Positions 20,066-52,360 of a stretch of 64,000 bases of DNA are shown one piece after another. This DNA comes from a candidate division CSSED10-310 bacterium. Lineage in GTDB: Bacteria > CSSED10-310 > JAFGJC01. The stretch covers positions 1-64,000 of the forward strand of contig JAFGLW010000004.1 of assembly GCA_016927905.1 (NCBI GenBank). Direction: 5' to 3'. Within the stretch, counting starts at the first letter, position 1, and every line of letters starts with the position of its first letter. The position numbers and the translations under genes were made by a program. Below the pieces are notes generated by a model, which saw only the letters and a list, made by a program, of their open reading frames with translations, was not told the origin of the DNA and made no database searches.

Positions 20066-20229
20066 GCCAGTCCTCCTGGAAATTTACTCCCGTATTATCT
20101 ATCATGTTCACCGGTAGAATGAAATGACCATCCGGAAAATCGGGGCACCGGTTTTTCAGGTGCGGAAAGAACCTCCCTTGGCAGCAAACTTGCTTGATAT
20201 CTTCCAAGGTATTTTCACCAGGAGGTGAC

Positions 20230-23200
20230 ATGATGGGTCATATTTGGATTCGATGGATTGCGTTGACGGTCTGTTGCCTGACCGCAGGACCGGTTCTGGC
20301 CGGTCAGGTCGGGGATCATCGCGCGGCTTATCAACGGGCTGTAGACGAAGCCTGCCAGGGCAGGACGGACGGATTGGCGATATACGTATCCGGCGATCCT
20401 CTGCCTGCGGGAGAGGAAATCAAAACCTGGAAGGGAATATTCCTGACTCTGGATACGGCGCAATGGCTGGTTTTTATCGATGAACATCCCGGCGCCAACT
20501 GGGAACATTCCTGCCGGTTTGTCCTGGTGGATCCCGGAACGGGAGTGGTCCGGATGACCCGGGGTACCCGGCCGCCGGAATGTCTGGGAGACATGATTCA
20601 CATGTCCGGTCCCGATATTCTCGGAGGAGAAAACGTGCGGCCCACTCTGAAATCCGCCCGGTCCCCGGCTGCACCCGCCGGCCGGTCGGTCGAGCATCTC
20701 TGGGCGGTGATTCTTTCGGGGGGAGCATCCCAGTACTCCAACTATCCCCGGTACTGGAACGACTGCTCCAGCATCTATACGACGCTGGTGAACGTATACG
20801 GGTACCTGGACGAAAACATTATCGTGGCTATTTCCGACGGAACCGATCCGGCCCCGGACCAGAGTAACGGGGGAAATTCCAATCCGGATCTGGACGGCGA
20901 CGGCGATGACGACATTATGTTCTCCTGTATCAAGACCAATCTGGACATTATTTTCGCCGATCTGGCAACCAACCTGACATCTCAGGATTCGCTGTTCATT
21001 TTCACCACCGATCACGGAAACGGCCAGCTTGGCGTACCGGGTCAACCGACCTCGATGAACCTGTGGAACGGGGAAGAAATCTGGGATTATGAATTCGCCG
21101 CCCTGATGGAGCCCATTCAATGCCGGGAATTCAATGTGGTGCTGGAACCCTGTTTTTCCGGTGGATTCGTCAATGACATCATCGAGATGAACTCGTCTGT
21201 TCCCCGGTCGGTGTCATCCGCGGCGAATGATCATGAATATTCATGGGCCATGGGTCCCGATTATATTTACGACACCTATGTGTTTCACTGGACGGCGGCG
21301 GTAACGGGAGAAGACGCTTTCGGGAATCCCGTAGACGCCGATACCAACATGGACGGCATCGTGGACATGTATGAAGCGTATGTTTACGCCGAGTTCATGG
21401 ATGACGATGACGAGCATCCCCAGTATGACGACTGGCCGGAGGGGTACGGTTCCACAACCAGTCTGTGGGGATCGGGACCGAATTCAGAGGGTGAAGTCAA
21501 GCTCGACCGAACGCTTTACAACTGTGACGATACCATCGAAATCACCGTGGAAGATCTCGATCTGGAAGGCCAAGGTACGCTGACCATCACCATCGATTCG
21601 ACTACCGAACCCGGCGGTGAATCCGTGATTTTGACCGAAACGGATACCGCGCATTTTGAAGGAACGATCGCCACGGGCACCGGGACCTCTTCACCCGACG
21701 GCATTCTCCAGGTCGATCACGGGGATTTCGTCACCGCAACCTATGAAGACGACAATTACGGCGGCCAGGGCCCCATGACACTTACCGATCAGTCGACCGT
21801 CGACTGCCTGGCTCCCGTCATTTCCAATGTCCATACCGACGATATGACCTATCAATCCGCTACGGTTTACTGGACCACCGACGAACCCGCAACGTCCCGC
21901 GTGGAATACGGAATCGACATGGGGCTGGGGACCGTGGTGGAATCGACCGAACCGGTGACCGACCATGCCGTCCTGATCACCGGGCTGGATGACTGCACAA
22001 CCTATTACTTCAAAGTGCTGTCCACCGACCAGGCCGGTAACCAGGCCGAAGACGATAACGGCGGTCTCATGTATTCCTTCCAGACCTGGGAAGTCGTCTA
22101 CCAGTTGAACGAAACCTTGGACTCCAATCCCGGATGGACCATATCGGGAGGTCAGTGGGCGTTCGGCCAGCCGACGGGCGGCGGCGGGGCCTACGGCGGT
22201 CCGGATCCCACCGGAGGATATACCGGCACCAACGTTTATGGCTACAACCTCAACGGCGATTACGCCAACAACATACCCGAATACAACCTGACCACCACCG
22301 TCATCGACTGTTCCGACGCCGAAGGCGTCATCTTTGGATTCCGGCGGTGGCTGGGCGTGGAACGTAATTTTTACGATCACGCCGCTGTCAGGATTTCCAC
22401 CGACGGATCCACCTGGACGACGATCTGGGCGAACCCGGATGCGGAAACGGCCGATACCGCCTGGGTCTATCAGGAATTCGACGTGTCGGCCTATGCCGAT
22501 CACCAGAGCACCGTCTATTTTCGGTGGGTGATGGGAACGACCGATGGCGGATGGACCTATTGCGGCTGGAATATCGACGATGTCATCGTGTACTACTCCA
22601 ATCCCTGCGGAGAACCGACGTCGACACCGCCGGCAACCTGCACACCGACCACGGTCCCCACCGGCACACCGCCGCCGGCCACCCATACACCGGCTCCCCC
22701 CACCCATACACCGGCTCCCCCCACCGACACACCGGCTCCCCCCACCGACACCCCGGTACCGCCAACCAACACGATGATTCCGACCAACACCCAGATTCCC
22801 ACATACACGTCCATGCCGCCGACCGACACCCCGGCCCCGCCGACCGACACACCGGTGCCGCCCACGGAGACGCCTTCCTTTGAAAAGGGGATGGTGCTCA
22901 TGCTGGATGATACGGACCTGACAGCGGGAGACCGGTTTTATCTGCACATGAACCTGAATAATCCCGAACCGGAAGCGTACCAGGCTGATGCGTACGTGCT
23001 GCTGGGTATATGGGGTGATTACTGGTTCTGGCCCAGCTGGATACATATGAGCCAGGGATTGGATTCACAAACGTACAGCATCCCCTCCGGAACCACACCC
23101 AAAGATCTTCTCGACTTCACATGGCCCGGCAATGTGGGACAGGCGGGCAATCTCGAATTCATCGGCTGCCTGTTCCGGCCCGGAAGCTGGAATATGATCG

Positions 23201-23235
23201 GCTCGGTTCAGTACATCAACTGGTCGTACCATTGA
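20230..23235 (+). CDS. Secreted legumain-like (C13, clan CD) cysteine peptidase. Order: peptidase domain, beta-sandwich domain, FN3-like domain, lectin-like domain, Pro/Thr linker, ~115-aa conserved C-terminal domain.
   Basis: It has a signal peptide (MMGHIWIRWIALTVCCLTAGPVLAG). FIFTTDHGNG and VLEPCFSGGF form the His-Gly/Cys dyad of legumain/GPI-transamidase. The PT linker ([13 protein letters not shown]...) is at 22615-22885. The C-terminal domain is shared with the ORF at 37578. Confidence 0.8.
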   Translation: MMGHIWIRWIALTVCCLTAGPVLAGQVGDHRAAYQRAVDEACQGRTDGLAIYVSGDPLPAGEEIKTWKGIFLTLDTAQWLVFIDEHPGANWEHSCRFVLVDPGTGVVRMTRGTRPPECLGDMIHMSGPDILGGENVRPTLKSARSPAAPAGRSVEHLWAVILSGGASQYSNYPRYWNDCSSIYTTLVNVYGYLDENIIVAISDGTDPAPDQSNGGNSNPDLDGDGDDDIMFSCIKTNLDIIFADLATNLTSQDSLFIFTTDHGNGQLGVPGQPTSMNLWNGEEIWDYEFAALMEPIQCREFNVVLEPCFSGGFVNDIIEMNSSVPRSVSSAANDHEYSWAMGPDYIYDTYVFHWTAAVTGEDAFGNPVDADTNMDGIVDMYEAYVYAEFMDDDDEHPQYDDWPEGYGSTTSLWGSGPNSEGEVKLDRTLYNCDDTIEITVEDLDLEGQGTLTITIDSTTEPGGESVILTETDTAHFEGTIATGTGTSSPDGILQVDHGDFVTATYEDDNYGGQGPMTLTDQSTVDCLAPVISNVHTDDMTYQSATVYWTTDEPATSRVEYGIDMGLGTVVESTEPVTDHAVLITGLDDCTTYYFKVLSTDQAGNQAEDDNGGLMYSFQTWEVVYQLNETLDSNPGWTISGGQWAFGQPTGGGGAYGGPDPTGGYTGTNVYGYNLNGDYANNIPEYNLTTTVIDCSDAEGVIFGFRRWLGVERNFYDHAAVRISTDGSTWTTIWANPDAETADTAWVYQEFDVSAYADHQSTVYFRWVMGTTDGGWTYCGWNIDDVIVYYSNPCGEPTSTPPATCTPTTVPTGTPPPATHTPAPPTHTPAPPTDTPAPPTDTPVPPTNTMIPTNTQIPTYTSMPPTDTPAPPTDTPVPPTETPSFEKGMVLMLDDTDLTAGDRFYLHMNLNNPEPEAYQADAYVLLGIWGDYWFWPSWIHMSQGLDSQTYSIPSGTTPKDLLDFTWPGNVGQAGNLEFIGCLFRPGSWNMIGSVQYINWSYH
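22615..22885 (+). repeat. Intragenic imperfect tandem repeats (about 15-24-bp periods) encoding the Pro/Thr linker.
   Basis: Reiterated cacaccggctccccccacc and ccgaccgacaccccggcc units. Confidence 0.7.
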
Positions 23236-23310: not shown

Positions 23311-23393
23311 AGCGAAGAAGATGTCGTTCGTCGGCCGGTATTGTATTATTGAACTCGAAGCGGACACGAAAGGATGTGACGGCATGGCCAGGT

Positions 23394-27260: not shown

Positions 27261-27349
27261 ACCGACCGATACCGGAACTGCCGGAAATGGTATGTTTTGC
27301 CTGTCCCGGGTGGATTTCCCCCTCACCGGGAATTGACAAATCAAGGGAC

Positions 27350-31155: not shown

Positions 31156-31833
31156 ATGCCTTCGATGAATCTCGTAATGGTATTGAAAAGGTCGGATCTG
31201 TTCGCGGATGTGGGAGATTCCCATCTGAAGGCGATTTTGAGCGGCAGCCGGATGAGACATTATGAAAAGAACGACTTCATTTTTTTCGAAGGCGATGAAG
31301 GCAGCGCATTCTATCTTCTGGTGGAGGGTTCGGTAAAGCTGGCAAAATCCTCCGCAGACGGCCAGGAAACACTGGTCAAACTGGTCCGGCCGGGTGAAGT
31401 ATTCGCCGAGATCATTCTGTTTGAAAAAAGCGGCTATCCGGTCACCGCCGAATCCGCAGGGCCTTCGAAAGTCCTTGAAATATCCAGAAAACATTTCCTG
31501 ACGCTGCTCGACGACACCGGTTTCCGGAATGAATTCATCGCGCTGCTCATCCGCAGGCAGCGATATCTTGTAAACCGGATTCTGGTTCTGACGGCATATG
31601 ACGTGGAAGAACGTTTTTTCATGTTTTTACGGGAGCGATACGGAGCGCATCAAACCTATCGTATCGACGTATCCAAACAAGATATGGCGTCAGCCATCGG
31701 CACAATTCCGGAAACGTTTTCGCGAATGCTGAAACGGTTGAAAACAAATAAAACTCTTCGATGGACCGGCAAAACATTGCATCTGGCATCCGGGTTCTGG
31801 GAAAACCGCGAGGATCATGACCGAAAGGCATAA
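31156..31833 (+). CDS. Crp/Fnr-family transcriptional regulator, likely HcpR-type.
   Basis: It has a cNMP-binding-like beta-roll (FIFFEGDEGSAFYLLVEGSVKL) and a C-terminal HTH (MASAIGTIPETFSRMLKRL). It is divergent from hcp. Confidence 0.8.
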   Translation: MPSMNLVMVLKRSDLFADVGDSHLKAILSGSRMRHYEKNDFIFFEGDEGSAFYLLVEGSVKLAKSSADGQETLVKLVRPGEVFAEIILFEKSGYPVTAESAGPSKVLEISRKHFLTLLDDTGFRNEFIALLIRRQRYLVNRILVLTAYDVEERFFMFLRERYGAHQTYRIDVSKQDMASAIGTIPETFSRMLKRLKTNKTLRWTGKTLHLASGFWENREDHDRKA

Positions 31834-33685
31834 ACACGCTTTTTTACGAATCCCGATCATCTGGATCCTCATCTGGGCGGCCGGATGTTCCTCCCCGGAA
31901 CCCGGACCGTCCGGGTATCGCTTGACCCACCTTGTTCCATCATCCGATGAATGTCCCTTCAGATCTCTCGATCAATCTCCGAGCGAAAAAGACGGCGAAC
32001 CGGATTTCCCGGATTCCGAATGGGTTATTGCCCGGATCAAAGCGGGCGGCATAACCAGGAACGCCATGGTTCTGAGACCCGATCAACCACTGGAAATAAC
32101 GGCGGATACCCTCCATGACGCCCGTTTCCGGGCCAGCCTGGTCGCTCCGGTCGACAGCTCCAATTTAACCACCGATCTCCGGGTCCGAATCCGCACGGAA
32201 TCATCCGCTCAACCGGGAACCGCTGCGGAGCGCTGGGTTATAATGCCGCGGGATGCCGGTTCCGGATGGATTCCGGTGGATTTCGACCTGTCCGGACTGG
32301 GTCCGGGCGAAAAGACCCTTTGCATAACACTTGAAGGGTCCGGAATCAACAAATCCAACCTCCCGGTATTCATAGGCTCCCCGGTCATGATATCGGGGGA
32401 TCCCGATTCCAGGAAAACCAGTATCGTCATGATCCTGCTGGATTCCCTCCGTGCGGATCACCTGGGGTGCTACGGTTATCCGGAACCGGTCTCCCCGTTT
32501 ATCGACCGGCTCAGCCGGGGAAGCGTTCAATACATGGCTGCCAGATCGCCATGTTCCTGGACAATGCCGTCGGTGAACGCGCTGTTCACCGGCATCTATC
32601 CTTCACGGTACCAGTATATCGGCGATCCCATGAAGGAATTGCCGGACTCGATGGAATCCCTTGCGCAGGTGTTGTCCCGCAACGGTTATTTTGCCATCGG
32701 CATCAGCAGCAACTCGCTGATCGTTCCGGAACATGGATTCGACCGGGGTTTCGACGTGTTCGACGACACCAGTGTCCGCTACGGGCAGAAAAATTCGGCA
32801 ACACTCATGTACTCCCGTACCGTGGAACTCCTGAAAACATACCGGGATCTTCCTCTGTTTTTATATGTGCACTGCATGGATCCCCATGATCATTATGCGC
32901 CGCCCGGTCCCTTCCGCCACATGTTCGATCTGCCTGCCGGAGTGGCCCGGGATCTGATCATTCAGGGGGATTCCGGACAGCTCATGTCCCGGATCGAATC
33001 CGCCGGGGAGATTCCGCCAGATCGGGAGCAAACATCCTATCTGAACGCACTGTATTCGGGTGAGATCCGGTGTATGGATGCCATTGTCGAATGGATATTA
33101 AGAAAAATGCAGGATCTGGGCATGCACAGGGAACTGAACCTGATCGTGACCTCCGACCACGGTGAGGAATTCATGGATCACGGCAGACTTCAGCACGCCC
33201 GAACCCTGTATGAAGAATCCATCCGGATTCCACTCCTGATCTGGAAACGGGATCGGTTCCGGAGTTGCGATCTCGTGAGGGGACCGGTGTCATTGATCGA
33301 TCTGGTCCCGACCCTGATGTCCGCTGCAAACCTGGACATTCCGGAGGGAATCGACGGAGTGGACATCGGAAAGCCGGAGATTGTTCCACCGGAGAGAACC
33401 CTGTTCGCTCAGCTTCATGACCTGGACCGGCCGATAATTAGCTGGCGTGCGGCGATCCGGGGAAACTTGAAGGTCCTCCAGATCGGGAGCGCGCCCTTCC
33501 AATATTATCGACTGGACAGTGATCCGGGCGAGTTGTCGGCCGTTTCGGGCGATCCGGCCGGTTTCCACGCGCTGGCACAGGAGCTTGGGGCTCGATTGGA
33601 TGCGGAGCGGAACCTGCCGAGGGAATCCTGCCGGAACGATGAATATATCGAGCAGCAGTTGAAACGACTGGGATATATAAACTGA
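31817..33685 (+). CDS. Alkaline-phosphatase-superfamily paralog 3, a Sec lipoprotein, motif T-M-P-S-V.
   Basis: It has a lipobox (IWAAGCSS). MILLDSLRADHLGCYGY and RSPCSWTMPSVNALFTG. It overlaps the crp stop by 17 nt. Confidence 0.7.
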   Translation: MTERHKHAFLRIPIIWILIWAAGCSSPEPGPSGYRLTHLVPSSDECPFRSLDQSPSEKDGEPDFPDSEWVIARIKAGGITRNAMVLRPDQPLEITADTLHDARFRASLVAPVDSSNLTTDLRVRIRTESSAQPGTAAERWVIMPRDAGSGWIPVDFDLSGLGPGEKTLCITLEGSGINKSNLPVFIGSPVMISGDPDSRKTSIVMILLDSLRADHLGCYGYPEPVSPFIDRLSRGSVQYMAARSPCSWTMPSVNALFTGIYPSRYQYIGDPMKELPDSMESLAQVLSRNGYFAIGISSNSLIVPEHGFDRGFDVFDDTSVRYGQKNSATLMYSRTVELLKTYRDLPLFLYVHCMDPHDHYAPPGPFRHMFDLPAGVARDLIIQGDSGQLMSRIESAGEIPPDREQTSYLNALYSGEIRCMDAIVEWILRKMQDLGMHRELNLIVTSDHGEEFMDHGRLQHARTLYEESIRIPLLIWKRDRFRSCDLVRGPVSLIDLVPTLMSAANLDIPEGIDGVDIGKPEIVPPERTLFAQLHDLDRPIISWRAAIRGNLKVLQIGSAPFQYYRLDSDPGELSAVSGDPAGFHALAQELGARLDAERNLPRESCRNDEYIEQQLKRLGYIN

Positions 33686-37444: not shown

Positions 37445-37577
37445 TTCATTTGCTCGTTTTTGCATCACCGGATTAATCGAAATAGCGGAAAAGTCCATCT
37501 CCTGACAGAGTGTTTGGCAGCGTTTTTGCTTCAAACAGTGGTATCGTGTGTATTTTGATCTGTTCAGGAGGTGGATT

Positions 37578-40500
37578 ATGGATCGCAACGGTTTGAAACA
37601 TACTGCTTTGACGGGATTGCTGATCCCGGTGGTATTGCTGTGGACCGCTTTTCCGGTTTATTCCGAAACAGTACGGGTGGCGGTTCCCGAGGTGAGCGGG
37701 TATTGTCTGGAGGATTTTGATGGAGGTCAGGTTCTGACTTTGCCCGGCTATGGCCGCGGGAACATCCCCGGAGAACCTCAGCTCCCCGCCAGAATTTTCG
37801 CGGTTGCCATCCCTCCAGGTGCGCGGGTTGATTCCGTCGATGTCCGTTCTTCTGAGACCGAGGTGCTTCCGGGCACTTTCATTATCGCTCCGAAACCGGT
37901 TCCCCGGCCGTTGAGCGGGGAAGAATCGAAGCGCGAGCTGGAAGCGAAACAGACGTTCATCGCACGTCAGAAGGAGATATACAGCCAGGATGAGCTGTTC
38001 CCCGGGCGGATCGGTGCCATCGTCAGGACGGCCGGATTCCGGAAATACAACCTGGTGGATGTCCGGATTTCTCCGGTTCAGTACCGACCGCAGTCGGGCG
38101 TTCTGATCCGTCACACCGGGATCATCATGGACGTGCACTACACTCCGGGCATCTTCCCGGTGAATCCGTCGGTCCTGACGGATTGGCAGCAGAGAATGGA
38201 GCGCCGGGCGGAGCAGATGATCCTGAATTATCAACAGGCGCAGCAGTGGTATCCCGAGGTTGCCCCGCAGCGAGGGTTGTATGAATTCGTGATCATCACC
38301 ACCGAAGATCTGGAAAGCTCCGTTTCGGATCTGGCAAACTGGGAAATCATCAAGGGGAAACCATCCAATGTGGTGACGGTGGAATGGATTTCCTCGACTT
38401 ATGCCGGAGTGGATCTGGCGCAGAAGATGCGGAATTTCCTGCTGGAGAAATATCCTTCCGGAGAATGGGGGATCGAAGATGTCTGCATGGCGGGTCATTA
38501 CGATGATGTGCCCATGCGCAGGATCGCCGATGATCCGGATACGGACCTGTATTTTGCCGAACTGTCGCTCCCGGACAATCAATCCTGGGACGCCAACTCC
38601 AACGGCCAGTATCTGGACAGCGGGGATAGCTGTGATTTTTACGCGGAGATCAATGTCGGGCGGATACCGTGGAGCGAGCCGGCGATCATGCAGCACATCT
38701 GCCAGAAATCCGTAGCCTACGAGATGACCGACGATCCCGCTTTCAAAAAGAACATTCTGCTCCTGGGATCCTATTTCTGGTCGGACACCGACAATGCGGT
38801 TCTGATGGAAGCCAAGGTGGATCAGGAATGGATGTCGGACTGGACCATGTTCCGGATGTACGAGAAAAACACCGATTATTTCTCTCCCTATCCATGCGAC
38901 ATGGAGCTGCTTCATGAAAATGCTGTGCCGGAATGGTCCACCGGGACCTATGCCTTCGTGAACTATGCCGGACACGGATCGTCGGTTTCATGCCATATCC
39001 TGGGCATCGGTCAGCCCGCATTCATCGAACACGTCGATTGCTCCCAGTTGAACGATGACTACCCTTCTATCGTGTTTGCCGACGCATGCAGCAACAGCGA
39101 AACCACCACCTCGACCAGCATTGGAAGAGAAATGCTGAAACAGGGTGCGGTGGGTTTCGTTGGATCGACCCGGATCGCCTACGGCTGTCCTGGATGGAGC
39201 GGTCCGGAAGACGGATCCAGCCAGTCTCTGGATTACTATTTCACGACCAGTGTCACGTCGGGGGAATACAGCCAGGGCGCAGCACTCCAGCGCGGCCTGC
39301 AGGAAGTATATCAGATGAACGGTTGGAATTATCCGGCGCTGGAAATGTGCGAATGGAGCCTGTGGGGGAATCCGGATCTGGGTGTGGCGTTTGCCCTGTC
39401 CAGCGACGGTACGGTGATGTTCGATAGGATGGTGTACATGCTGAACGACTCGGCGGTGATCACCGTCCGGGATCTGGATCTGGATGAAAATCCGGGTGTC
39501 CCGGATACCATCGACGTGGAAGTGAGTACGACCGGCGGCGATCTGGAAACCCTGACCCTGACCGAAACCGGCGGGTCCACCTATGTGTTCGAAAACAGCA
39601 TCACCGTTCAACCGGGATCACCGGTGACCGGCAATGGCATGATCGAGGTGAGTCATGGTGATGATATCCAGGTTATTTATATCGACGCCGATGACGGGCA
39701 TGGCGGTGTGAATGTTCCCAAGACGGCCGAAGCGGATGTCGACGGCGTACCCCCGGTGATCTCCGGAGTAACGGTGACGAATATCACCGAGGATTCCTTC
39801 ACGGTGGAATGGACGACGGACGAGGAATCCGACAGCGGGGTGACCTACGGCGAGGTCTCCCCGGATACGACCGTCAGCTCCGGAACCATGACCACCAACC
39901 ATTCGATTGCCGTCACGGATCTGGAACAGTGCACGGTTTATTACTTCTATGTCGAATCCAGGGATCGTGCCGGGAATGCGGCGGTGGACGACAACGGGGG
40001 TTCATACTATTCGCTCGAGACTTATATTCTGTTTGTTTCCCTGACTGCGGACATGGACGCCGATCCCGGATGGACCTACGAAGGTCAGTGGGCATGGGGT
40101 CAGCCAGCCGGATTGCAGGGTGATCCCCCGTCCGGATACACGGGAACGAATGTCGTCGGATACAACCTGAACGGTGAATATTCGGGGAATATGCCGGTGC
40201 GGTACGCAACCACCGGATCGTTCGACTGCACCGGGATGAGTGCAGTATATCTGGGATTCTGGCGGTGGCTCGGCGTTGAAAGCAACACCTGGGATCATGC
40301 CAGCATCCAGGTTTCGAATGATGGCGGATCGAGCTGGTCGACCGTCTGGGAAAATCCGGGATCGAGCATCAACGATCCGGACTGGACCTTTGTGGAGTAT
40401 GACATCTCGGACTGGGCGGCCGGACATGCCGACGTCAAACTGCGATGGGGCATGGGTCCGGCCGACGGGTACATCGAATACTGCGGATGGAACATCGATG

Positions 40501-42404
40501 ATGTGGTCATATCCAATGCCGTTCCCTGCAACCAGTCGATTCTGACCTACCAGAGCCACGTCATCGACGACTCCGCCGGAAACGGTGACGGGGAGATCAA
40601 CGGGGGTGAAACCATCGCCCTGTCGGTGACGCTGCAGAATATCGGCCTGGAGGCCACCGGGGTGGAAGCGGTGCTCAGTACCACCAATCCACACGTGACC
40701 ATCACGGTGAGTCACGCCGAATTTCCGGATATTCCCCAGAGCGGCGTTGGAACTTCCCTGACCGATTACGTGTTCGAGGTGAGCGAAGACGTTTCGGACG
40801 GCGAAGTGATCCCGTTCGAGCTGTCCTGGACCTGCACGGGCGCTTCCGGCCAGACCGGGTTTAACGATCTGATCGTCGCTCCGGGACTGGAATGGTATTC
40901 CTCGGTTGTTCTCGATCCCGTCGAAGGTGACGGAGACGGCGTCCTGGACCCGGGTGAAACCGCCCAGATCATGGTGACATTGTTCAACCGGGGACATGGA
41001 ACCGCTCACGATGTAATTGCCGATCTGACATCCAGCCACCCGCAGTACGTCACCATCGATGACGGCTCCGCGGATTTCCCGGATATGGAAGGTGAACGCT
41101 ATGGGACCAGCATTGCACCCCATTTTACGGTTACCGCCGATCCCGCCACACCCGATCACACCATCGTGACGTTCACTCTGGCCATCACGGGACAGAATTA
41201 TGCCACGGAGGATACTTTTGTTCTGGAAGTGACCGTATCGGATTTCATCTGCCGGTATGCCTGGGACCTGGACACCGATCCGGGCTGGACCTGTGAGAAT
41301 CAGTGGGCATGGGGCGTGCCGCTCGGACAGAGCGGCGATCCCACGTCGGGATACACCGGCGCCAACGTCTACGGATACAATCTGGCCGGGAACTACCCAC
41401 CCTTCCTTCCGGAAACATTTCTCACGTCGGAGGCCATCGACTGTTCCATGCTGAGCAGCGTGGAGGTGCGGTTCATGCGCTGGCTGGGGGTGGAAAGCGC
41501 ACAGTGGGATCATGCCTGTTTCCGGGTTTCCAACGACGGGTCGACCTGGTACACCATCTGGTCTCATACGGGCGAAACACTGCTCGACACCTCGTGGCAG
41601 AACATGTCGTACGACATTTCGGATTATGCCGACGGACAATCCGCCGTGTACCTGAGATGGGTCATGGGTGAATCGGATTCCTATGTTGAATATTTCGGCT
41701 GGAACCTGGACGATATCGAAATCTGGGCGGAAAGCGGCAATCCGGTGCCGACACACACGCCGGTGCCGCCCACGGCGACATCCATGCCGCCCACCGCAAC
41801 GCCGGTCATTCCCACCGCGACATCCATGCCGCCCACCGCAACGCCGGTCATTCCCACCGCGACATCGGCACCGCCCACGGATACACCCATTCCGCCGACC
41901 GATACACCCATTCCGCCGACCGATACACCCATTCCGCCGACCGATACTCCCGTTCCGCCGACCGATACTCCCGTTCCGCCGACTCACACGCCGGTGCCGC
42001 CCACCGCGACGCCGGTACCGCCGACCTCCACGCCGACGCCCGATCCCGGCATGACACTGATCATCGACGATGATTACCTGGAGCCCGGCGACATATTCCA
42101 TCTGCATTATTATCTTTACAATCCCGGGGTGGAAATGCGCACCCTGGATGCCTATATCCTGCTGGATGTCTACGGAGCGTACTGGTGTTATCCCGGATGG
42201 AATCACATCAGCATGGGACTGGATTACCTTCCCAACGTGCACATGAGTGCCGGGGCAACCATGCATGAGGACGTGTTCAGTTTCACCTGGGGCGACTACA
42301 ACGCCGGGGATTATCATGAGTTGTTCTTCTATGGGGCTGTGTTCGATGCGGGAACATTCGATATCTTCGGTGATTTCCAGATGATCGAGTGGGGATTCGA
42401 ATAG
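37578..42404 (+). CDS. Secreted gingipain-family (C25, clan CD) cysteine peptidase. Order: peptidase domain, beta-sandwich domain, FN3-like domain, 2x lectin-like domain, Pro/Thr linker, ~115-aa conserved C-terminal domain.
   Basis: It has a signal peptide ([29 protein letters not shown]). VNYAGHGS and VFADACSNS form the His/Cys dyad. The PT linker is at 41745-42050. The C-terminal domain aligns with that of the ORF at 20230. Confidence 0.8.
41745..42050 (+). repeat. Intragenic tandem repeats (24-bp units gaccgatacacccattccgccgacc x3-5 plus variants) encoding the PT linker.
   Basis: Exact reiteration is visible at 41881-42000. Confidence 0.75.
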
Positions 42405-42470: not shown

Positions 42471-42524
42471 TTGTTTCCGTATAATGAAAAATAGTGCGGT
42501 TAACCCCGTTCGGAGGAGGTGTAT

Positions 42525-44933
42525 GTGAAGAAGATGATGTCCCCCTGGAATATAATGATCGTTTTCGGTGCAATTGTGTCTCTGATGTTTCCGGCAGATT
42601 CCGGCGCAGCGCTCAAGCCGAAGGTTGTTGATGTTGCCATGGAGCTGTCGACCCTGCATCCGGCGCTGAACGGCGAATACGCCGCGAATGTCCGGATCCG
42701 GGCGCAGGAAGATATTCCGGACCTGACTGTGGTTGTGGAACTTCCGCAACAGATTGAACTTGTATCGGATTCGGTAAAATGGTCCGGTTCGCTGGCTGCG
42801 GGGAATTCAATCGAATTGAAACCGGGAATCCGGATCGTATCCGAAGGCCGGTTTTCCATCCGCGTCCGGATCAGCACACCGGAAAACCGGGTGAGGGAAA
42901 CCTGGGAGCATCTGAATTTCATACTCGAAAACGGGCGGAACCAGGTGTCCGGAGAACCCTTTATCCGGATGGATCTGGATGCCGCCGCAACTCCGGAGGA
43001 ACGACAGGCTGTCACGCGGTTCAAGGCGGCGCACACCGAGATCATCGTGCAGCCGGCCGCCGGGAGATCTGCTCCCGCCAAATGGACCGCCACCATCACC
43101 GGCAAGGCGGAATACGTGGATGTGATGGGGAACAGTCACCCCATCCGCCTGGCCAAGATCCAGGTTTCCAATGAGGATCCCGATGCGCAGTATGCCGTTC
43201 TGGGAAGCAGCAACACGGGTTTTGACGGCACATTCACCATCCAGGCCGTCTGCCAGGAAGAAGGAATGATCCCGGATGTCCAGCTCAGAGTGTATTCCTC
43301 CCACCCGGACAATTTGTTCACCATGGTCTGCCCGTCCAAAACGGATCCGTTTTACACCCTGTTGTCCGATATCCGGGTCGACTGCCCGGCGGGAAACATC
43401 ACCATCAACGTGAAAACCGGCCAGCCCCAGTTGAATCAGACCAATGACGACGTGATCGCCCGGGCGTTCGCGGTCCTGGACGGGATGCTTCAGGCATACC
43501 TGGAAAGCTATGCCATCCGGGTCGCTGACGGGTACATGGATCCGGTGCGGTATATTGATACCGTGTTCCCGGCGAGCTCCTGTTACAATACAGGGGAGGA
43601 TTGTATCCAGATCGCCCATCTCGACTCCCAGGAATGGGACCTTGTTTATCACGAATTCTACCATTTCTTCTCGAGAGAAGCCGCCAAGACCAAGTTCAAT
43701 AACGGACCGGGCGGCGCGCATGACGGATCCAGCGCCATTCCGGATTATGGCAAGGACACAGGTATCCGGCTGGCCTGGGACGAGGGCATCGCGACGTTCA
43801 TGTCCATTACGACGCAGCTGGAGGATCGTTCCCGGAAGGACTGGGGTATTCCATGCCCGTCCATGCCATGTCTGGGAGACCGGAAGTATGAAGAGATCGA
43901 AGGGACGGCCTGGTCGATCGACCTGGAAACGGTGGGTCAGACACATCCTTACAGCGAGGGTTACGGGAGTGAATTCTCGGTGCTGGGAACGTTATATGAT
44001 CTGTGGGACGGAGACAGAGACGGTACCGATCTGCAGGGTGTCAACTGCAAGGATTATATCCAGCTTTCGCTTCACAGTATCTGGAAACTGTGGAATACCG
44101 GGGACTGGGATGACGTCAGCAAATTTTATGCCTATGTGAGCAGTATTTTAATGGGAGCCGACGCCAATCTCGTTCCGATGTTTTCCTGCCCGTTCGCCAT
44201 GAACCACATCGCTCCCATGGCCTACGATCCCAGAGAAGGCGACATGCTCAGCCGCTCCCAGTGTCCCACCTTTACATGGGCACCCTATGGCGATTCCACT
44301 CCGGGTTATTTCAATGATGAGTTTATACTGGGAATTTTTAAGGGTGGACTCTCATATACCAATATCGTTTTTGCCAAATTCGATCTTAAAACGACCAGCT
44401 GGACTCCCACAAAGGATGAATGGGAAGCCATCACGCATGGCGCTACCAACTCAACCCGGTACTACTGGTACGTCATGGGATGGAACACCCAGATTCCCAG
44501 GACACCGCCCAGCAATGTCGGGATGACGGCATTTATCAGCAACGCACACAGTTTTGTTCTGCGGCCCAACATCTATGCCCAGGGAATGATGGGGTGCCAG
44601 GACAAGGATCCCGCGCTTTTCTTCAGCGGGATCCCTCTGGAGATCAACCCGGATTCCAACGAATATCCGTTCCACGGGTCGGGCGCCGGAAAAGACTATG
44701 ACGGAGATCCCATCTATTTCATTCTCGACGGCAAATTCATCCTGAGCCAGTCAATGGTTCGAGTGGATATCGAAATGTACAGTGATCCCGGTTATACAAC
44801 ACATATTCGAACGGACCGGGCTGAAGCATACTCCTGGAACGAATGGTTCTACGACTTCGCCTGCGATCTGATCCGGGACACCACCGCCGGCTGCCGACCC
44901 ATATGGTTTGCGGTGAAATTCGCCGATCACTGA
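42525..44933 (+). CDS. Secreted hypothetical protein with a HExxH motif (possible zincin-like metallopeptidase).
   Basis: It has a signal peptide. The motif is VYHEFYHFF, followed by WDEGIATF. The start is ambiguous (GTG 42519, GTG 42525 or ATG 42534). Confidence 0.5.
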   Translation: MKKMMSPWNIMIVFGAIVSLMFPADSGAALKPKVVDVAMELSTLHPALNGEYAANVRIRAQEDIPDLTVVVELPQQIELVSDSVKWSGSLAAGNSIELKPGIRIVSEGRFSIRVRISTPENRVRETWEHLNFILENGRNQVSGEPFIRMDLDAAATPEERQAVTRFKAAHTEIIVQPAAGRSAPAKWTATITGKAEYVDVMGNSHPIRLAKIQVSNEDPDAQYAVLGSSNTGFDGTFTIQAVCQEEGMIPDVQLRVYSSHPDNLFTMVCPSKTDPFYTLLSDIRVDCPAGNITINVKTGQPQLNQTNDDVIARAFAVLDGMLQAYLESYAIRVADGYMDPVRYIDTVFPASSCYNTGEDCIQIAHLDSQEWDLVYHEFYHFFSREAAKTKFNNGPGGAHDGSSAIPDYGKDTGIRLAWDEGIATFMSITTQLEDRSRKDWGIPCPSMPCLGDRKYEEIEGTAWSIDLETVGQTHPYSEGYGSEFSVLGTLYDLWDGDRDGTDLQGVNCKDYIQLSLHSIWKLWNTGDWDDVSKFYAYVSSILMGADANLVPMFSCPFAMNHIAPMAYDPREGDMLSRSQCPTFTWAPYGDSTPGYFNDEFILGIFKGGLSYTNIVFAKFDLKTTSWTPTKDEWEAITHGATNSTRYYWYVMGWNTQIPRTPPSNVGMTAFISNAHSFVLRPNIYAQGMMGCQDKDPALFFSGIPLEINPDSNEYPFHGSGAGKDYDGDPIYFILDGKFILSQSMVRVDIEMYSDPGYTTHIRTDRAEAYSWNEWFYDFACDLIRDTTAGCRPIWFAVKFADH

Positions 44934-45092: not shown

Positions 45093-46442
45093 ATGAAATG
45101 TGAAAAACTGTTTGTCCAACTGGCAGCGCTGTTCGGTGTGCTGTTTGCCCTGATCACGCCCCCTTTCCAGGTCCCGGACGAAGGGGCACATTTCCGGAGA
45201 AGCTATATTACTTCCGAACTCAAAATCTTCGAATACCGGGATCGGGGATGCGTCGGTCATGACCTTCCGAGATCCGTGATCGCCGTTTCGGACGAGTTCC
45301 ACGAAGCGCTGGCTTTCAAGCCGTCGGCCAAGATACACCCCGGAAGGATTTTTGAAAGCCTGAACACCCCGCTCGATCCCGGCATCAGGATGTTCTGCTG
45401 CTTTCCCAATACCGCCGTTTACACGCCCCTGGTCTACCTGCCCCAGGCCGCCGGGATCCTGATCGGGCGCTGTTGTTCGCTGTCTCCACTGATTCTGATG
45501 TACCTGGCACGCCTGCTCAATCTCACCGTTTGGATGATTCTGGTTGCCACTGCAATCCGGATCACACCCGTCGGGAAATGGGTGTTCTTCTTCCTGGGGC
45601 TGATGCCCATGACCCTGTTCGAGGCGGCCTCCGTCTCCGCCGACAGCCTGACCATCGGCAGCTCCTTTATTTACACCGCATTTCTTCTCAGGAGCAGCCT
45701 GGAGGATACACCGGTGCGGTGGAAATGGTTTGCGGTTCTGATACCGCTGACACTGATACAGCTGCTGGTCAAACAGGGATATATACTTCTGACCGGACTG
45801 ATTTTCATGATACCGGCCGGCCGGTTCGGGTCGATTCGGAAATATCTCGTCTTCACCGGTTCCTATCTGGCGGGTTCATTCGCCGTGGTCAAGACCTGGT
45901 CCGTCCAGATCCGCGATATCTCCCCGCCGCCCGAGGATGTCTTCCCGCCCGAGCAGATACGCCATATCCTCTCCGGCTGGAATATCCTTCCCGAAGTTTT
46001 CCTAAATACACTGGACCGCCATTTCCTCCCATATGTCAAGAGCTTCGTCGGGACACTCGGCTGGCTGGATACCCATCTCAATACGTCCTTTATCTATTTC
46101 TACCTCGCGATTCTAATACTGGCCTCTCTGATCAAACCAGGGACATCATCCGGGCTGAGATTCCGGCACAAAGCGCTCATGGCAACGGTGCTGTGCGCCA
46201 GCACTTTTATGATATTCGTCGTGCTGTATATCCGGTGGACACCCCCGAAACTGCCGATCATCTCCGGCCTGCAGGGTCGGTATTTCATTCCACTGGCCCC
46301 GCTGTTCTTCATGCTGTTTTCCAGCAGCAGGGTCGGTATCGCTACGGACTCGAAATGGGTGTCGCCGGCGGCTGAAATCATCTCGATCCTGTCGCTGGGT
46401 TATGCTCTCGGCGTTATCGTGATGCGATACTATATAATTTAA
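45093..46442 (+). CDS. Polytopic membrane protein, DUF2142/GT-C-like.
   Basis: PPFQVPDEGAHFRRSY is a DExxHF-like motif after TM1. It has about 10 TM helices. Confidence 0.45.
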   Translation: MKCEKLFVQLAALFGVLFALITPPFQVPDEGAHFRRSYITSELKIFEYRDRGCVGHDLPRSVIAVSDEFHEALAFKPSAKIHPGRIFESLNTPLDPGIRMFCCFPNTAVYTPLVYLPQAAGILIGRCCSLSPLILMYLARLLNLTVWMILVATAIRITPVGKWVFFFLGLMPMTLFEAASVSADSLTIGSSFIYTAFLLRSSLEDTPVRWKWFAVLIPLTLIQLLVKQGYILLTGLIFMIPAGRFGSIRKYLVFTGSYLAGSFAVVKTWSVQIRDISPPPEDVFPPEQIRHILSGWNILPEVFLNTLDRHFLPYVKSFVGTLGWLDTHLNTSFIYFYLAILILASLIKPGTSSGLRFRHKALMATVLCASTFMIFVVLYIRWTPPKLPIISGLQGRYFIPLAPLFFMLFSSSRVGIATDSKWVSPAAEIISILSLGYALGVIVMRYYII

Positions 46443-46536
46443 ATATCAGAATTTCGAATCAAAGTTCGTCTTTAGGGTTGATAATTAACAGAAAATAATG
46501 TATATTAAAATTGTCGGGTTTTTCCGACGGGGAGAA

Positions 46537-47829
46537 ATGAAAGTGAAGAAACGCGGGAAAATCGGGATATTTTATGTTGCGGTCATGCTTCAGATTTCGG
46601 TTCTGACGGGACCGGGTTTTGCCGGGGAAGTGATTGATGATCCCCGGTTTCTGGCGGAACGGGCGGTGGATGTCAACCCTTCGCTGCATTCGGTCCGGGA
46701 ACGAATTCGGGCGTTGGAATATGAGGCGGATTCGGTCGAGATATTCAGGGATCCGGTCATTTCGCTGGAGTACAGCAATGTGCCGGTCGATTCGTTCGCG
46801 ATGGGCGATTCGCCCATGACCGGGATTCAGTTTTCGATCCGGCAGACGCTCCCTTTCCCCGGGAAGAACGACCGCAGGCGGGATGTGGCAGCAGTCAAGA
46901 CAGAGGCATGGGGATATCAACTGGATGAGCAGCAGAACATGCTCCGGGCTGCCGTGGAGAAAGCTTATTGGAACCTGACGCTGACGCGGCAGCTGCGAGC
47001 CATTACGGAGCGGCATGTCGAGCTTGTCGGGCAGCTGATCGACACCGTCAGGTTCAAGTACCAGATCGGGAAAGTCGAGCAACACGAGTTGTTACGGATG
47101 GAACTGCTCCGCAAGATGCTCCGCGACGATCTTGCCGATTATGATCTCCGGGAGCGGCAGTTGACGGCGGAGATCAACGGAGTGCTGCACCGTGCTGCAG
47201 ACGTCAATATCGGAACTCCCGCCGATGCCGCCCCGGTTGCGCCGCTGTCCGATCCCTCCCGGATGCATGAGGTTTTCCGGAAAAATCGACCTTTGCTGGC
47301 GCAGCTTCAAACGAACGTGGACATTCACCGGAAATCGGCTGATTTGGCTGAAATGGATCGCTGGCCGGATCTGACGGTCATGGGTGGTTATCGGGTACGG
47401 ACCGAAAGCGGAATGGATCCCGGTACGGATTTCATCACGGTGGGCGTTTCCATTCCGATACCCTTTGATTTTAAGCATCGATATGCCGCGATGCGTGAAG
47501 ATCATGCGACTCAGGCGGCTGCGGCTCAAATGGAATATGATGCGGCGGTCGACCGGATTGCTACGGAGCTTGAGGTTGCGCTTGCGGCCTGGGAACGCGC
47601 TTATCAGAAGACGGAATTATACAGATCGATTCTGATTCCGGAAGCGGAAAAAACTCTCAAGGCCGCGATGACGGCGTACCAGTCGGATCTCGCGGATTTT
47701 TCCTCCCTGTACCAGTCGGAACTCCAGTTGCTGGAGTTCGACCGGTCGGTCACCGAGGCCGGGATTCAGACCCGGATCCAGCGGGTCACCGTTGCGGCGT
47801 TGATCGGACGGGATCCGCAGATGCGATAA
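46537..47829 (+). CDS. TolC-family outer-membrane efflux protein (CusC/CzcC-like).
   Basis: It has a signal peptide and two coiled-coil/beta-barrel repeats. It is the first gene of an RND operon. Confidence 0.75.
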   Translation: MKVKKRGKIGIFYVAVMLQISVLTGPGFAGEVIDDPRFLAERAVDVNPSLHSVRERIRALEYEADSVEIFRDPVISLEYSNVPVDSFAMGDSPMTGIQFSIRQTLPFPGKNDRRRDVAAVKTEAWGYQLDEQQNMLRAAVEKAYWNLTLTRQLRAITERHVELVGQLIDTVRFKYQIGKVEQHELLRMELLRKMLRDDLADYDLRERQLTAEINGVLHRAADVNIGTPADAAPVAPLSDPSRMHEVFRKNRPLLAQLQTNVDIHRKSADLAEMDRWPDLTVMGGYRVRTESGMDPGTDFITVGVSIPIPFDFKHRYAAMREDHATQAAAAQMEYDAAVDRIATELEVALAAWERAYQKTELYRSILIPEAEKTLKAAMTAYQSDLADFSSLYQSELQLLEFDRSVTEAGIQTRIQRVTVAALIGRDPQMR

Positions 47830-47841
47830 GGAGCATTCAAT

Positions 47842-49227
47842 ATGAACTGGAAAAAAGATACCATTTATCCTGAAACCATCCGGATATGCATGGTTTTCCT
47901 GTTTCTGACCGTCGGAATTATCCTGCCGTCCGGCACCGCCGGTCTGATGGACGGGGATGCAGTGTATACCTGTCCCATGCATCCGGAGATATTACGGGAG
48001 CAGCCGGGTTCCTGTCCCATTTGTGGAATGGATCTGGTTGAGGCTGCGGATCGAGAGCTGCACACCCCGGACTTTGACGTTTTGATCGATCCGGTGGTGG
48101 TGCAGAACATGGGTGTCCGGCTCGAACACGTGAAACGCGGCTCAATCCACCGGGATGTCCGGGCTCTGGGTGAAGTCGAGGTAGCTGAAGATGAGATCTC
48201 CGTGGTCAATCTGCGTTATTCCGGGTGGATCGAGAAAATATATGTGGATGAGACCGGTCAGGAAGTAAAGAAGGGTGATCCGCTGTTCAGCATATATTCT
48301 CCGGATCTGGTTGCGACCTTGAAGGAATATCTTCTGGCCGTGAACACCCGCGGTGCGGACAGTGAATTTGCCAGATCGGCCGCCGGCCGGTTGAATTTCT
48401 GGAACATCCCGGAATCGGTGCTGAAACGAGTCATCAAGAACCAGACGGTTGACCGAACCCTGACCATTATCTCCCCGGGCAGCGGTTATATCCTGCACAA
48501 GGATGTGGTTGAAGGCACGAAAGTGAACGAGGGAAGGGATCTGTACCGGATCGGTAATTTGAAGAAGATCTGGGTTGCGGCGGAGGTTTACGAATTCGAT
48601 GCGCCGTGGATCCGGATCGGCCAGAAAGCCGACATGGAACTGCCGTTTCAGCAGGGCCGGCATTGGGACGGCGTGGTCAGCACCATCTACCCGACGCTGA
48701 ACAAGATCAGCCGAACTCTGACCGTGCGGCTTGAATATCAGAATCCGGGTGTGGAATTGAAACCGGGGATGTTCGCGACCGTCCGAATCCATGCACAGGA
48801 AAAAGACAATGCTCTGGTGATTCCGACTGAAGCCATCATTCGTTCCGGGGAACGCCAGATCGTCTTCGTTGCAAAGGAACTGGGCCGGTATGAACCGCGG
48901 GAGATCATTACGGGTCTGACCGGCAGCGGTCACATCAGCGAAGTCCTTTCCGGATTGACCGAGGGTGAAGCGGTGGTGATTTCCGGCCAGTTTCTGCTCG
49001 ATTCCGAATCACAGTTGCAGGAAGCCATCCGGAAATTCACCGCTTCAGGCCTGCAGGTCGGGAGGCCTGTCCCGGAGAAGGCTTCACACGAACAGATGCA
49101 ACTTGAGTATGCGGCAATGGATGCTCCAGAAGCAGTTTACACCTGCCCGATGCATTCTCAGATCGTTCAATCCGAACCGGGAAACTGCCCCATCTGCAGG
49201 ATGGAGCTGGTCGAAAGAACCCGCTGA
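47842..49227 (+). CDS. Heavy-metal RND membrane-fusion protein (CusB/CzcB-like) with metal-binding CPMHP...CPICGM domains at both termini.
   Basis: YTCPMHPEILREQPGSCPICGMDL is at the N-terminus and YTCPMHSQIVQSEPGNCPICRMEL at the C-terminus. A biotinyl-lipoyl/beta-barrel MFP core lies between them. Confidence 0.8.
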   Translation: MNWKKDTIYPETIRICMVFLFLTVGIILPSGTAGLMDGDAVYTCPMHPEILREQPGSCPICGMDLVEAADRELHTPDFDVLIDPVVVQNMGVRLEHVKRGSIHRDVRALGEVEVAEDEISVVNLRYSGWIEKIYVDETGQEVKKGDPLFSIYSPDLVATLKEYLLAVNTRGADSEFARSAAGRLNFWNIPESVLKRVIKNQTVDRTLTIISPGSGYILHKDVVEGTKVNEGRDLYRIGNLKKIWVAAEVYEFDAPWIRIGQKADMELPFQQGRHWDGVVSTIYPTLNKISRTLTVRLEYQNPGVELKPGMFATVRIHAQEKDNALVIPTEAIIRSGERQIVFVAKELGRYEPREIITGLTGSGHISEVLSGLTEGEAVVISGQFLLDSESQLQEAIRKFTASGLQVGRPVPEKASHEQMQLEYAAMDAPEAVYTCPMHSQIVQSEPGNCPICRMELVERTR

Positions 49228-49261
49228 AGCGTCATGAAACCCGCCGAATGAGGGATCCGTC

Positions 49262-52200: not shown

Positions 52201-52360
52201 GATTGGATTACTGCCCATCATGTTCGGAACCGGGACCGGGACGCGGATCATGCAGCGGATTGCTGCTCCGATGGTCGGCGGATTGATCTCGTCGACGATC
52301 CTGACCTTGGTGATTCTCCCGGCTGTTTACTTTCTCTGGCGACAACGCCTGATCCGCTAA
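49262..52360 (+). CDS. Heavy-metal efflux RND transporter, CusA/CzcA family.
   Basis: It is 1032 aa with a 12-TM RND topology and HME-family-like blocks. Confidence 0.9.
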   Translation: MINWIIEICVRNRFFVLIVTAIVIAAGVWAMLDTPVDAIPDLSDVQVILFTEYPGQAPQVVEDQVTYPLTTAMLSVPYARTVRGYSFFGFSMVYIIFEDGTDLYWARSRVLEYLNFVQTRLPKDAVPQLGPDATGVGWVYIYTLTSDRHDLAQLRSIQDWYLRYELMSLQGVAEVASAGGFVKQYQVEVDPEKLRAYGLSLKMVNTAIKRSNIDTGGRLLEMGETEYMVRGKGYITSIRDLETIPIGVEMETHTPIMLSQVANIQTGPEIRRGIIEMNGRGEAVSGIVVIRSGENALEVIRGVRDRLEDLKAGLPEGVTVHTSYDRSNLILRSIDTLVEKLMLEMAVVALIILIFLLHFRSSLVVIFTLPVGVLISFLIMKWMGINANIMSIGGIAIAIGVMVDASVVMVENLHKHREREPDSSQIDLVIRSAREVGPALFFSLLIITVSFLPVFTLEQQEGRLFKPLAFTKTFAMAASAVLAITVIPVLMFYFVRGKVLRESRNPLSRFFIRIYQPVIHFVLRFPVLTVVLALVVMLATWIPFSRLGSEFMPPLNEGDLLYMPTTPPGISVTKARELLQQTDKLIADHPQVTHVLGKIGRADTATDPAPLSMIETTIILTPEKNWPDGKTIEDIIRELDARIQFPGLTNAWTMPIKTRTDMLATGIKTPVGIKLMGDNLEQLSELGQRIEAVIRELPDTQSVYAERVTGGNFIDIEIRREDAARFGLTVEDVQEVVRSAIGGMNVSWAVEALERYPINVRYPRELRSDIEQFRHIAIQTPMGHAVPLAHVADVRIVKGAPMIRSENARRTAWIYIDLKTQDVGGYVARAKQAVMDRVDLPEGMSLIWSGQYEYMERAARRLRIIVPLTLAVIFLLLYVHFRDITESFIVMTTLPFALVGGVWIMFVSGYNLSVAVAVGFIALAGLAAETGVVMLVFLDEVYTRWRRENRLRTVQDLKQVIVEGAVDRVRPKLMTVATTVIGLLPIMFGTGTGTRIMQRIAAPMVGGLISSTILTLVILPAVYFLWRQRLIR

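Follow-up and report, generated by a model that had tools for sequence, protein, structure and literature searches.

A 64,000-nucleotide stretch of DNA from a CSSED10-310 MAG (hereafter the window) encodes two peptidases of different families that end in similar C-terminal domains (CTDs). This raises the question of whether the CTD is a sorting or anchoring signal that marks unrelated proteins for the cell surface, or whether it has some other role at the end of secreted enzymes. Both genes, and all of their parts described below, are on the forward strand.

The C25-like host gene (37548..42404, from the ORF translation) encodes 1618 aa from a GTG start. The start at 37578 that was originally assigned to it is an in-frame ATG ('MDRNG...') inside this ORF, and a signal-peptide-like N-terminus can be read in the translation from this ATG. 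Pfam matches identify a Propeptide_C25 domain at aa 61-198 (e-value 1.7e-8, 34.3 bits) and a Peptidase_C25 domain at aa 247-610 (e-value 1.8e-29). At 103.6 bits vs. a cut-off of 23, the latter clears the Pfam gathering threshold, and the family is assigned from this Pfam match. A cassette of Ig-like, FN3 and MAM/Reelin-like domains follows (aa 604-996, nt 39357..40535) and was recognized by its similarity to the C13-like protein. Judging from the order of parts, two CARDB-like stretches (aa ~1000-1232) precede a second MAM-like copy (aa 1241-1393), which in turn precedes a Pro/Thr-rich linker of PPTxTPx heptads (41739..42047, from the translation; tandem repeats at 41764-42035). The beta-sandwich CTD comprises residues 1501-1618 (42048..42401) and is followed directly by the stop codon (42402-42404). 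It is supported by alignment to the C13 copy, by the family HMM (e-value 3e-41) and by an AF2 model.

The C13-like host gene (20194..23235, from the ORF translation) encodes 1013 aa. The protein is identical to NCBI MBN1355112.1 (locus tag JXA40_02465, candidate division CSSED10-310 bacterium), which is annotated as a hypothetical protein with a start at nt 20230. The first part in order is again a signal-peptide-like N-terminus, read from the translation. A Peptidase_C13 domain lies at aa 170-362 (e-value 1.1e-9), and its 38.6 bits clear the Pfam cut-off of 22.8; as above, the family is assigned from the Pfam match. It is followed by an Ig-like, FN3 and MAM-like cassette (aa 423-807, nt 21460..22614, by similarity to the C25-like protein), a Pro/Thr-rich linker (22615..22887, from the translation; tandem repeats at 22656-22862) and the beta-sandwich CTD, residues 899-1013 (22888..23232), with its stop codon at 23233-23235. 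This CTD is supported by alignment to the C25 copy and by the family HMM (e-value 2e-44).

A tblastn search within the window aligned the two CTDs end to end (the last ~115-118 residues) with 39-40% identity and an e-value of 1e-22, and the 64 kb contain no further copy. The linkers before both CTDs are built from 21-nt (7-aa) tandem repeats. What the sequence-only reading observed is thus borne out, namely two clan CD peptidases, C25-like and C13-like, with signal-peptide-like N-termini, T/P linkers near their ends, and ~115 final residues that align throughout. That reading overlooked the upstream cassette. This unit of ~390 aa, located upstream of the linker in both proteins, is 44% identical over 401 aa (e-value 5e-82) and contains weak Pfam matches to fn3, InhA-like_MAM and Reelin_subrepeat-B. 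Because the two proteins share the cassette as well as the CTD, the window alone cannot show that the CTD is an independent module, and its modularity is concluded from data outside the window only. Elsewhere, S8 and M28 hosts carry the same cassette, which is a frequent companion of the CTD but not a requirement for it.

The CTD is a family absent from existing descriptions, occurs in dozens of copies per genome, and is present in CSSED10-310-labelled MAGs, untyped MAGs and metagenomes. An exhaustive search of 1.84 billion representatives with an HMM built from five sequences resulted in 2047 clusters at E<=1e-3, and the stricter limit of E<=1e-10 leaves 1012. Clustered at 50% identity, the family numbers at least 2000. 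When the C25 CTD alone was the query, a word-indexed search gave no match. Short CTD-only fragments in a word-indexed search with alignments were considered as stand-alone proteins and rejected; they stem from gene calls cut short where the P/T linker repeats or where the contig stops. A narrow GTDB-wide motif scan matched only seven MAGs, three labelled candidate division CSSED10-310 and four labelled 'uncultured bacterium'. In the flanks examined, one MAG encodes at least 27 copies and another at least 23. The proposed restriction of a multi-copy domain to one lineage is in keeping with these results.

The sequence-only reading had also proposed testing whether the CTD is always C-terminal, and this holds for nearly all copies. 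The CTD lies within 15 residues of the C-terminus in 150/153 of the best database matches, the protein ends 0-15 residues past the CTD match in 33/33 GTDB loci, and a metagenome scan with the CTD alignment gave 14 loci in which every one of the 28 copies is terminal. There is a single CTD per host, and 97-98% of copies are terminal. The remaining copies (about 2%), also in secreted proteins, are N-terminal or internal. One, at L035:2187-3545 on the minus strand, directly follows the signal peptide; two (L008:563-3940 and P0150) are followed by a P/T linker and then a Cys-rich domain; and in P0084 another region of ~155 residues follows the CTD. Such N-terminal and internal positions would not be tolerated by an export signal that must be C-terminal, and they are easier to reconcile with a module for binding or anchoring.

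An HMM search for further hosts with a linker and a signal peptide had been proposed, and most of the hosts that we found are of this kind. The CTD caps hundreds of unrelated secreted proteins in the CSSED10-310 lineage. A hydrophobic N-terminal segment is present, by a crude test, in 79/93 full-length hosts vs. 87/194 non-CTD neighbors, and the 40 residues preceding the CTD have a median P+T content of 44% vs. a background of 13%. We found 33 Pfam families in the 33 GTDB-locus hosts and 49 in 67 representatives. The cargo includes peptidases (C25 with propeptide, C13, S8, M28, M14) as well as beta-helix/NosD, Kelch, BNR/sortilin, FG-GAP and PMP repeats, PPAD, endonuclease I, CotH, LTD and alpha-amylase. 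Within one MAG (CALFER), similarity is detectable in 208/231 CTD pairs but in only 13/231 cargo pairs, so the CTD is independent of its cargo.

AF2 modeled the CTD of the C25-like protein as an eight-strand beta-sandwich (pLDDT 96.6, pTM 0.87). The prediction is that of a compact domain able to fold on its own, and its sequence signature is strongly conserved. Its structural neighbors are generic, soluble Ig-like sandwiches. Across 247 copies, P50 is conserved in 98%, W52 in 94%, W81 in 97% and P82 in 98%, and the motifs NP, YWFWPSW and FxWP are highly conserved. The domain ends in a beta-strand, '..(V/I)EWGY/F-x(0-4)'. Near-invariant motifs on unrelated hosts suggest selection by one common partner. 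The strand order suggests that NP, YWFWPSW and FxWP share one pole of the sandwich with both termini, and that pole would then be the likely recognition surface. We considered an outer-membrane eight-strand barrel and rejected it, since the domain is too short and all structural neighbors are soluble.

Neither window CTD, nor any of 47 diverse members, has a match in Pfam or NCBIfam (E<=1 or E<=10), and PDB sequences gave no match either. Models of T9SS type A/B CTDs (PF18962, TIGR04183, TIGR04131), PEP-CTERM, lectins and CBMs matched none of the 47 members even at E<=10. The CTD had been described as unlike the T9SS and PEP-CTERM patterns, and the searches agree, for lectins as well.

With modest confidence, we favor the reading that the CTD is a modular, lineage-specific surface-targeting tag, for sorting or anchoring, akin to the T9SS CTD or the dockerin. 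CTD proteins would be exported by Sec via their N-terminal signal peptide, and the CTD, held on a flexible Pro/Thr tether, would be recognized by one shared partner. By analogy with the T9SS CTD, this partner could be a machinery for export or attachment in the outer membrane; by analogy with a dockerin or anchoring domain, it could be a receptor or glycan on the cell surface. Many and varied peptidases, beta-helix proteins, beta-propellers and nucleases would thereby be exposed on the cell surface or set free from it. We infer the targeting role, the single partner common to all copies, and the partner's identity. A bolder form of this reading, which we put forward only tentatively, is that the CTD is the address tag of an undescribed export or surface-attachment pathway in a diderm phylum outside FCB (CSSED10-310 and relatives), functionally like type IX secretion but with different machinery, in which one of the CTD-bearing clan CD peptidases might act as processing enzyme. 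C25 is the family of PorU, and C13 that of the GPI-transamidase.

Several observations count against a tag. About 2% of the copies are not terminal, the domain is conserved far more strongly than is usual for T9SS CTDs, and partial scans of the loci and the window showed no T9SS component. The Ig-like sandwich fold is generic and common to many binding and spacer domains, and no partner or machinery was found near CTD genes in the 33 GTDB loci. ORF clustering across these loci and the window revealed no conserved non-CTD gene beside the CTD genes; the recurring neighbors are all generic (an ABC ATPase, a radical-SAM protein, TldD/PmbA-like proteins and sulfatases). The two HExxH proteins encoded downstream of the peptidases are not homologous, and they were rejected as a conserved partner pair.

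If the CTD is a sorting or anchoring tag, it would define the exported surface proteome of the uncultured CSSED10-310 bacteria and their relatives, with dozens of peptidases, adhesin-like proteins and nucleases per genome. A single HMM would then predict the CSSED10-310 surface proteome from proteins that NCBI at present labels 'hypothetical'. The tag would point to a machinery or receptor that nobody has sought, and if this partner is an outer-membrane export route outside FCB, the tag would lead to a system for secretion or attachment that is new. On the more modest reading of a binding or anchoring module, this would still be a large and well-defined family. Its size and confident fold, and its absence from Pfam and NCBIfam, make it worth curating.

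Other roles for the CTD have to be weighed against a targeting tag. It is conceivable, if rather unlikely, that the CTD is a substrate- or matrix-binding module, like a CBM or RbmA, which tethers enzymes to an environmental polymer or to the cell's own biofilm matrix and is not a sorting or cell-anchoring signal. A P/T-linked beta-sandwich with conserved aromatic runs, here YWFWPSW and FxWP, is the classic CBM2-type layout, and the rare N-terminal and internal copies would suit such a module. The cargo, however, consists mostly of peptidases, beta-propellers, adhesin-like repeats and nucleases, with a glycoside-hydrolase-type domain in only 1/33 hosts. CBMs occur at either end of proteins and in tandem, whereas the CTD is single and almost always terminal, and no CBM or lectin model matched it. 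We give little credence to the idea that the CTD is a true but very divergent T9SS CTD, whose cargo would leave the cell by a canonical type IX route that includes a sortase of the PorU type. T9SS CTDs are also beta-sandwiches at the extreme C-terminus of Sec-exported proteins, are carried by dozens of unrelated proteins per genome, and have overlapping cargo (gingipain-like C25, here with the gingipain propeptide, PPAD, S8, M14 and endonuclease I), to which CotH/LTD may be added. The CTD cargo list resembles known T9SS cargo sets. Against this, the three T9SS models matched none of the 47 members; solved T9SS CTDs (among them 5hfs, 5ag8, 7pq4 and 8qb1) have ~70-90 residues whereas the new CTD has ~115 and eight strands; it is much more strongly conserved as a domain, with the motifs YWFWPSW and FxWP; and it has rare non-terminal copies. 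Partial scans of the loci, and of the neighbors and large ORFs of the window, did not reveal a T9SS component. Among 94 other ORFs of the loci whose products look secreted but do not carry the new domain, the C-termini show no recurrent T9SS-type CTD, and the one FGE-sulfatase-domain gene found (L024:14534-15571) has no gldKLMN-like operon beside it. According to reviews, T9SS is confined to the FCB superphylum (PMC12398890, PMC12421860), and the literature puts the named host lineage outside this group, CSSED10-310 having been placed as sister to Acidobacteriota (PMC8248873).

A C-terminal pro-domain or intramolecular chaperone, which aids folding or latency and is clipped after secretion with no part in targeting, would account for the many peptidase hosts (C25, C13, S8, M28, M14) and for the protease-accessible linker, but we regard it as improbable. 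Many hosts, such as those with Kelch, FG-GAP or PMP repeats, beta-helices or LTD, need no latency, and a single chaperone domain is unlikely to serve 49 unrelated folds. PPC domains are likewise C-terminal beta-sandwiches on secreted peptidases. The new CTD differs in that it is also found on many non-peptidases and has no match to the Pfam HMM PF04151; PPC occurs as a separate domain in 2/67 hosts, so the CTD is not PPC. Very improbable, in our view, is a passive Ig-like spacer or stalk lacking a specific partner and spread by domain shuffling in one lineage. The generic fold is compatible with this, as is the abundance of Ig-like, FN3 and CARDB modules already in the hosts. In the N-terminal part of the CTD lies a motif, 'GD.F.L...L.NPG', with local similarity to CARDB / E-set Ig-like domains (PF07705; PDB 3idu). 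There is, however, no HMM match to CARDB, and we rejected descent of the CTD from the CARDB-like repeats of its host (hhalign probability 1.4%). Spacers, and CARDB domains usually, are internal and in tandem, whereas the CTD is single and terminal, and a spacer at the extreme end of a protein, beyond a flexible linker, would have nothing to hold apart. The near-invariant, exposed-type motifs in the 247 copies on unrelated hosts point to a specific interaction.

For a targeting tag, dockerins (PF00404) are the second close analogy. These are small modules, usually C-terminal after a P/T-rich linker, common to many unrelated secreted enzymes of one organism, with rare positional exceptions and a logic of many cargos and one receptor. 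Dockerins, however, are ~70-residue Ca-binding helical repeats, whereas the CTD is predicted by AF2 to be all-beta; no CTD member matched PF00404, and no cohesin-like partner was found. LPXTG, PEP-CTERM, GlyGly-CTERM and MYXO-CTERM are also lineage-specific, multi-copy, C-terminal and found on diverse secreted proteins. They differ in being tripartite signals of ~25-40 residues, with a motif, a transmembrane helix and a basic tail. This sortase-type arrangement is absent from the CTDs, which have no NCBIfam match and are 115-residue soluble beta-sandwiches ending in '...W-G-Y/F-x' without a hydrophobic helix. The same kind of in silico pattern led to the tripartite signals (Haft, bioRxiv 10.1101/2023.06.07.544157) and to the CTD.

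The window encodes two large, secreted-looking peptidases whose N-termini both read as signal peptides. The C25-like ORF (37548..42404, forward strand, 1618 aa), which probably starts at the ATG at 37578, matches Propeptide_C25 and Peptidase_C25. The C13-like ORF (20194..23235, forward strand, 1013 aa) matches Peptidase_C13; its product is MBN1355112.1 (JXA40_02465), labeled "hypothetical protein" by NCBI and sourced from a candidate division CSSED10-310 MAG. As the sequence-only reading had proposed, the last ~115-118 residues of the two proteins form a common C-terminal domain (CTD), encoded on the forward strand at nt 42048-42401 and nt 22888-23232, respectively. Alignment of the two copies needs no large gaps and gives 39-40% identity (within-window tblastn E 1e-22); the 64 kb contains no third copy. 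The Pro/Thr linker noted ahead of both CTDs is indeed present, encoded by 21-nt tandem repeats with a PPTDTPx heptad (41764-42035 in the C25-like gene and 22656-22862 in the C13-like gene). Assemblies and gene calls probably break at such repeats, which would account for the abundance of "CTD-only" database entries of 100-150 aa. A word-indexed search with the CTD returned only a few fragments, and reading their contigs revealed truncated calls of a MAM-like end, P/T linker and CTD.

The earlier observation of a shared domain was correct but incomplete, as it left out a cassette of ~390 aa upstream of the linker. This cassette of Ig-like, FN3 and MAM/Reelin-like domains is 44-52% identical between the C13-like (21460-22614) and C25-like (39357-40535) proteins, and a second MAM-like copy lies at 41268-41726. 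Because the cassette is also shared, the window by itself could not show the CTD to be an independent module. The cassette is found on other hosts, namely an S8 protein (database protein P0015) and M28 proteins (fetched loci L017 and L023), and is a frequent, not obligatory, companion of the CTD. Alongside the CTD, it forms a second shuffled module of this lineage.

When a profile built from five sequences was run exhaustively with HMMER against 1.84 billion cluster representatives, 2047 CTD proteins scored E<=1e-3, and for 1012 the E-value was 1e-10 or lower. The expected terminal position held in 150/153 best matches, which end within 15 residues of the C-terminus, with rare non-terminal copies as exceptions. 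A motif scan of one genome per species across 185,579 GTDB species yielded 33 loci in seven MAGs, three labeled CSSED10-310 and four only "uncultured bacterium." All 33 have a stop codon 0-15 residues past the match. A second scan of the fetched flanks, this time with the HMM, brought the count up to 70 CTD ORFs, often in adjacent genes; two of the MAGs account for at least 27 and 23 of them, respectively. A further 28 copies, all terminal, came from 14 metagenome loci and the region flanking a long-contig match (L036).

The isolated window CTDs have no match in Pfam or NCBIfam, and searching all PDB sequences with a profile returned nothing. When 47 diverse CTDs were searched one by one at E<=10, none matched a T9SS type A/B or PEP-CTERM-type model, as had been anticipated, nor a PPC, CARDB or lectin model. 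The CTD family is real, large and missing from current curated libraries; C-terminal targeting domains as a kind are already known. AlphaFold2, given the 47-sequence alignment, predicts an eight-strand beta-sandwich very confidently (pLDDT 96.6, pTM 0.87). The consensus of 247 copies is "..L.l.d..f.pGD.F.L...l.Np.......d.yilLDVyG.YWFWPsW.......D......ppg....e.iL.FtWP...Gsa.GL.FwGA.l.pgt..liGd.d.vefgY.", with P50, W52, W81 and P82 each kept at >=94%. Strand order alone would put the NP, YWFWPSW and FxWP loops at the same pole of the model as both termini. A subfamily (P0195, P0197, P0205) carries YFFAPDF/YFFAPSF in place of YWFWPSW and keeps the rest of the CTD.

The hosts are diverse. Those in the 33 GTDB loci contain beta-helix, BNR/sortilin, S8, Kelch, FG-GAP, M28, M14, PMP-repeat, alpha-amylase and DUF4185 domains. 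Among 67 full-length host representatives we counted 49 Pfam families, including C25 with propeptide (8 proteins), beta-helix (9 proteins), PPAD, endonuclease I, CotH, LTD, PKD and HINT. Within one MAG, similarity was detectable in 208/231 CTD pairs vs. 13/231 cargo pairs. Signal-peptide-like N-termini and the linker extend across the family: by a crude test, 79/93 hosts have a hydrophobic N-terminal segment vs. 87/194 neighboring non-CTD ORFs, and median P+T content in the 40 residues preceding the CTD is 44% vs. a 13% background.

The CTD therefore occurs once per protein, is terminal in ~98%, follows a flexible tether, sits on signal-peptide-bearing and otherwise unrelated hosts, is present in dozens of copies per genome, and is confined to a narrow lineage, within which its signature is strongly conserved. 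Together these features match what is seen in targeting modules shared by many proteins and recognized by one partner, such as T9SS CTDs, dockerins and short sortase-type signals (compare Haft, bioRxiv 10.1101/2023.06.07.544157). We somewhat favor a surface-targeting tag for sorting or anchoring, which would act either as an export signal that is cleaved or as a non-covalent anchor that is retained. A genuinely divergent T9SS CTD would share the pattern, and seems quite improbable given the model searches; T9SS has been placed only in the FCB superphylum (PMC12398890, PMC12421860), and CSSED10-310 is Gram-negative and sister to Acidobacteriota (PMC8248873). A more tentative proposal, which we consider doubtful, is that the tag serves an export or attachment pathway that lies outside the FCB group and has yet to be described.

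A PPC-like pro-domain would sit at the C-terminus of secreted peptidases; with no PPC match among the 47 CTDs, we rate it as improbable as a divergent T9SS CTD. A passive spacer is very hard to credit beside the conserved signature, and after a linker at the very end of a protein it would have nothing to space. A substrate- or matrix-binding module is unlikely, if less so; the lectin searches were negative, and the non-terminal copies count in its favor. At L035:2187-3545 (reverse strand) the CTD directly follows the signal peptide (aa 24-141 of 453) and precedes an uncharacterized 312-aa region, the only N-terminal copy seen. In two independent cases, L008:563-3940 (forward strand) and P0150, the CTD is followed by a second P/T linker and then by a Cys-rich domain of ~110 aa with the motif "HCETPEHYCFEP"; the extra terminal module sets these copies apart as a small subfamily. 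Within our preferred reading of a surface-targeting tag, both kinds of copy tilt the balance towards binding or anchoring.

In the 33 GTDB loci, the only non-CTD gene families that recur beside CTD genes are generic; no recognizable secretion component occurs in the window, and the one FGE-sulfatase-domain gene found, in locus L024, has no gldKLMN-like operon around it. Among 94 other secreted-looking proteins of the loci, no known sorting domain recurs in the last 130 residues. Genes in the window specify sulfatases, a CusCBA-like pump, kinases and two secreted HExxH proteins. The latter are large, lie directly downstream of each clan-CD peptidase gene on the same strand, lack the CTD, and are not homologous to each other: one (23321-26275, 984 aa) has HEDVH and a TolB-like PD40 propeller, and the other (42519-44933, 804 aa) has HEFYH and no Pfam or NCBIfam match. 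At 45093-52360, a DUF2142 membrane protein is followed by an outer-membrane efflux protein, an HlyD/CusB-like protein that bears domains for heavy-metal binding, and an RND pump of the AcrB family. A 1199-aa ORF (54456-58055, reverse strand) joins an ABC-2-type membrane region to an M1 peptidase domain and has no NCBIfam match. Three sulfatase genes (10298-12055, 27212-29365, 31817-33685) and a radical-SAM-like gene (12052-13413), possibly a sulfatase maturase, suggest degradation of sulfated polymers. On L036 (ENA ERZ21831077 contig_2, 4.29 Mb, probably a near-complete genome), a 3949-aa CARDB-containing protein ends in the CTD and is directly followed by a protein of >3385 aa with transglutaminase, Kelch and RHS-like domains.
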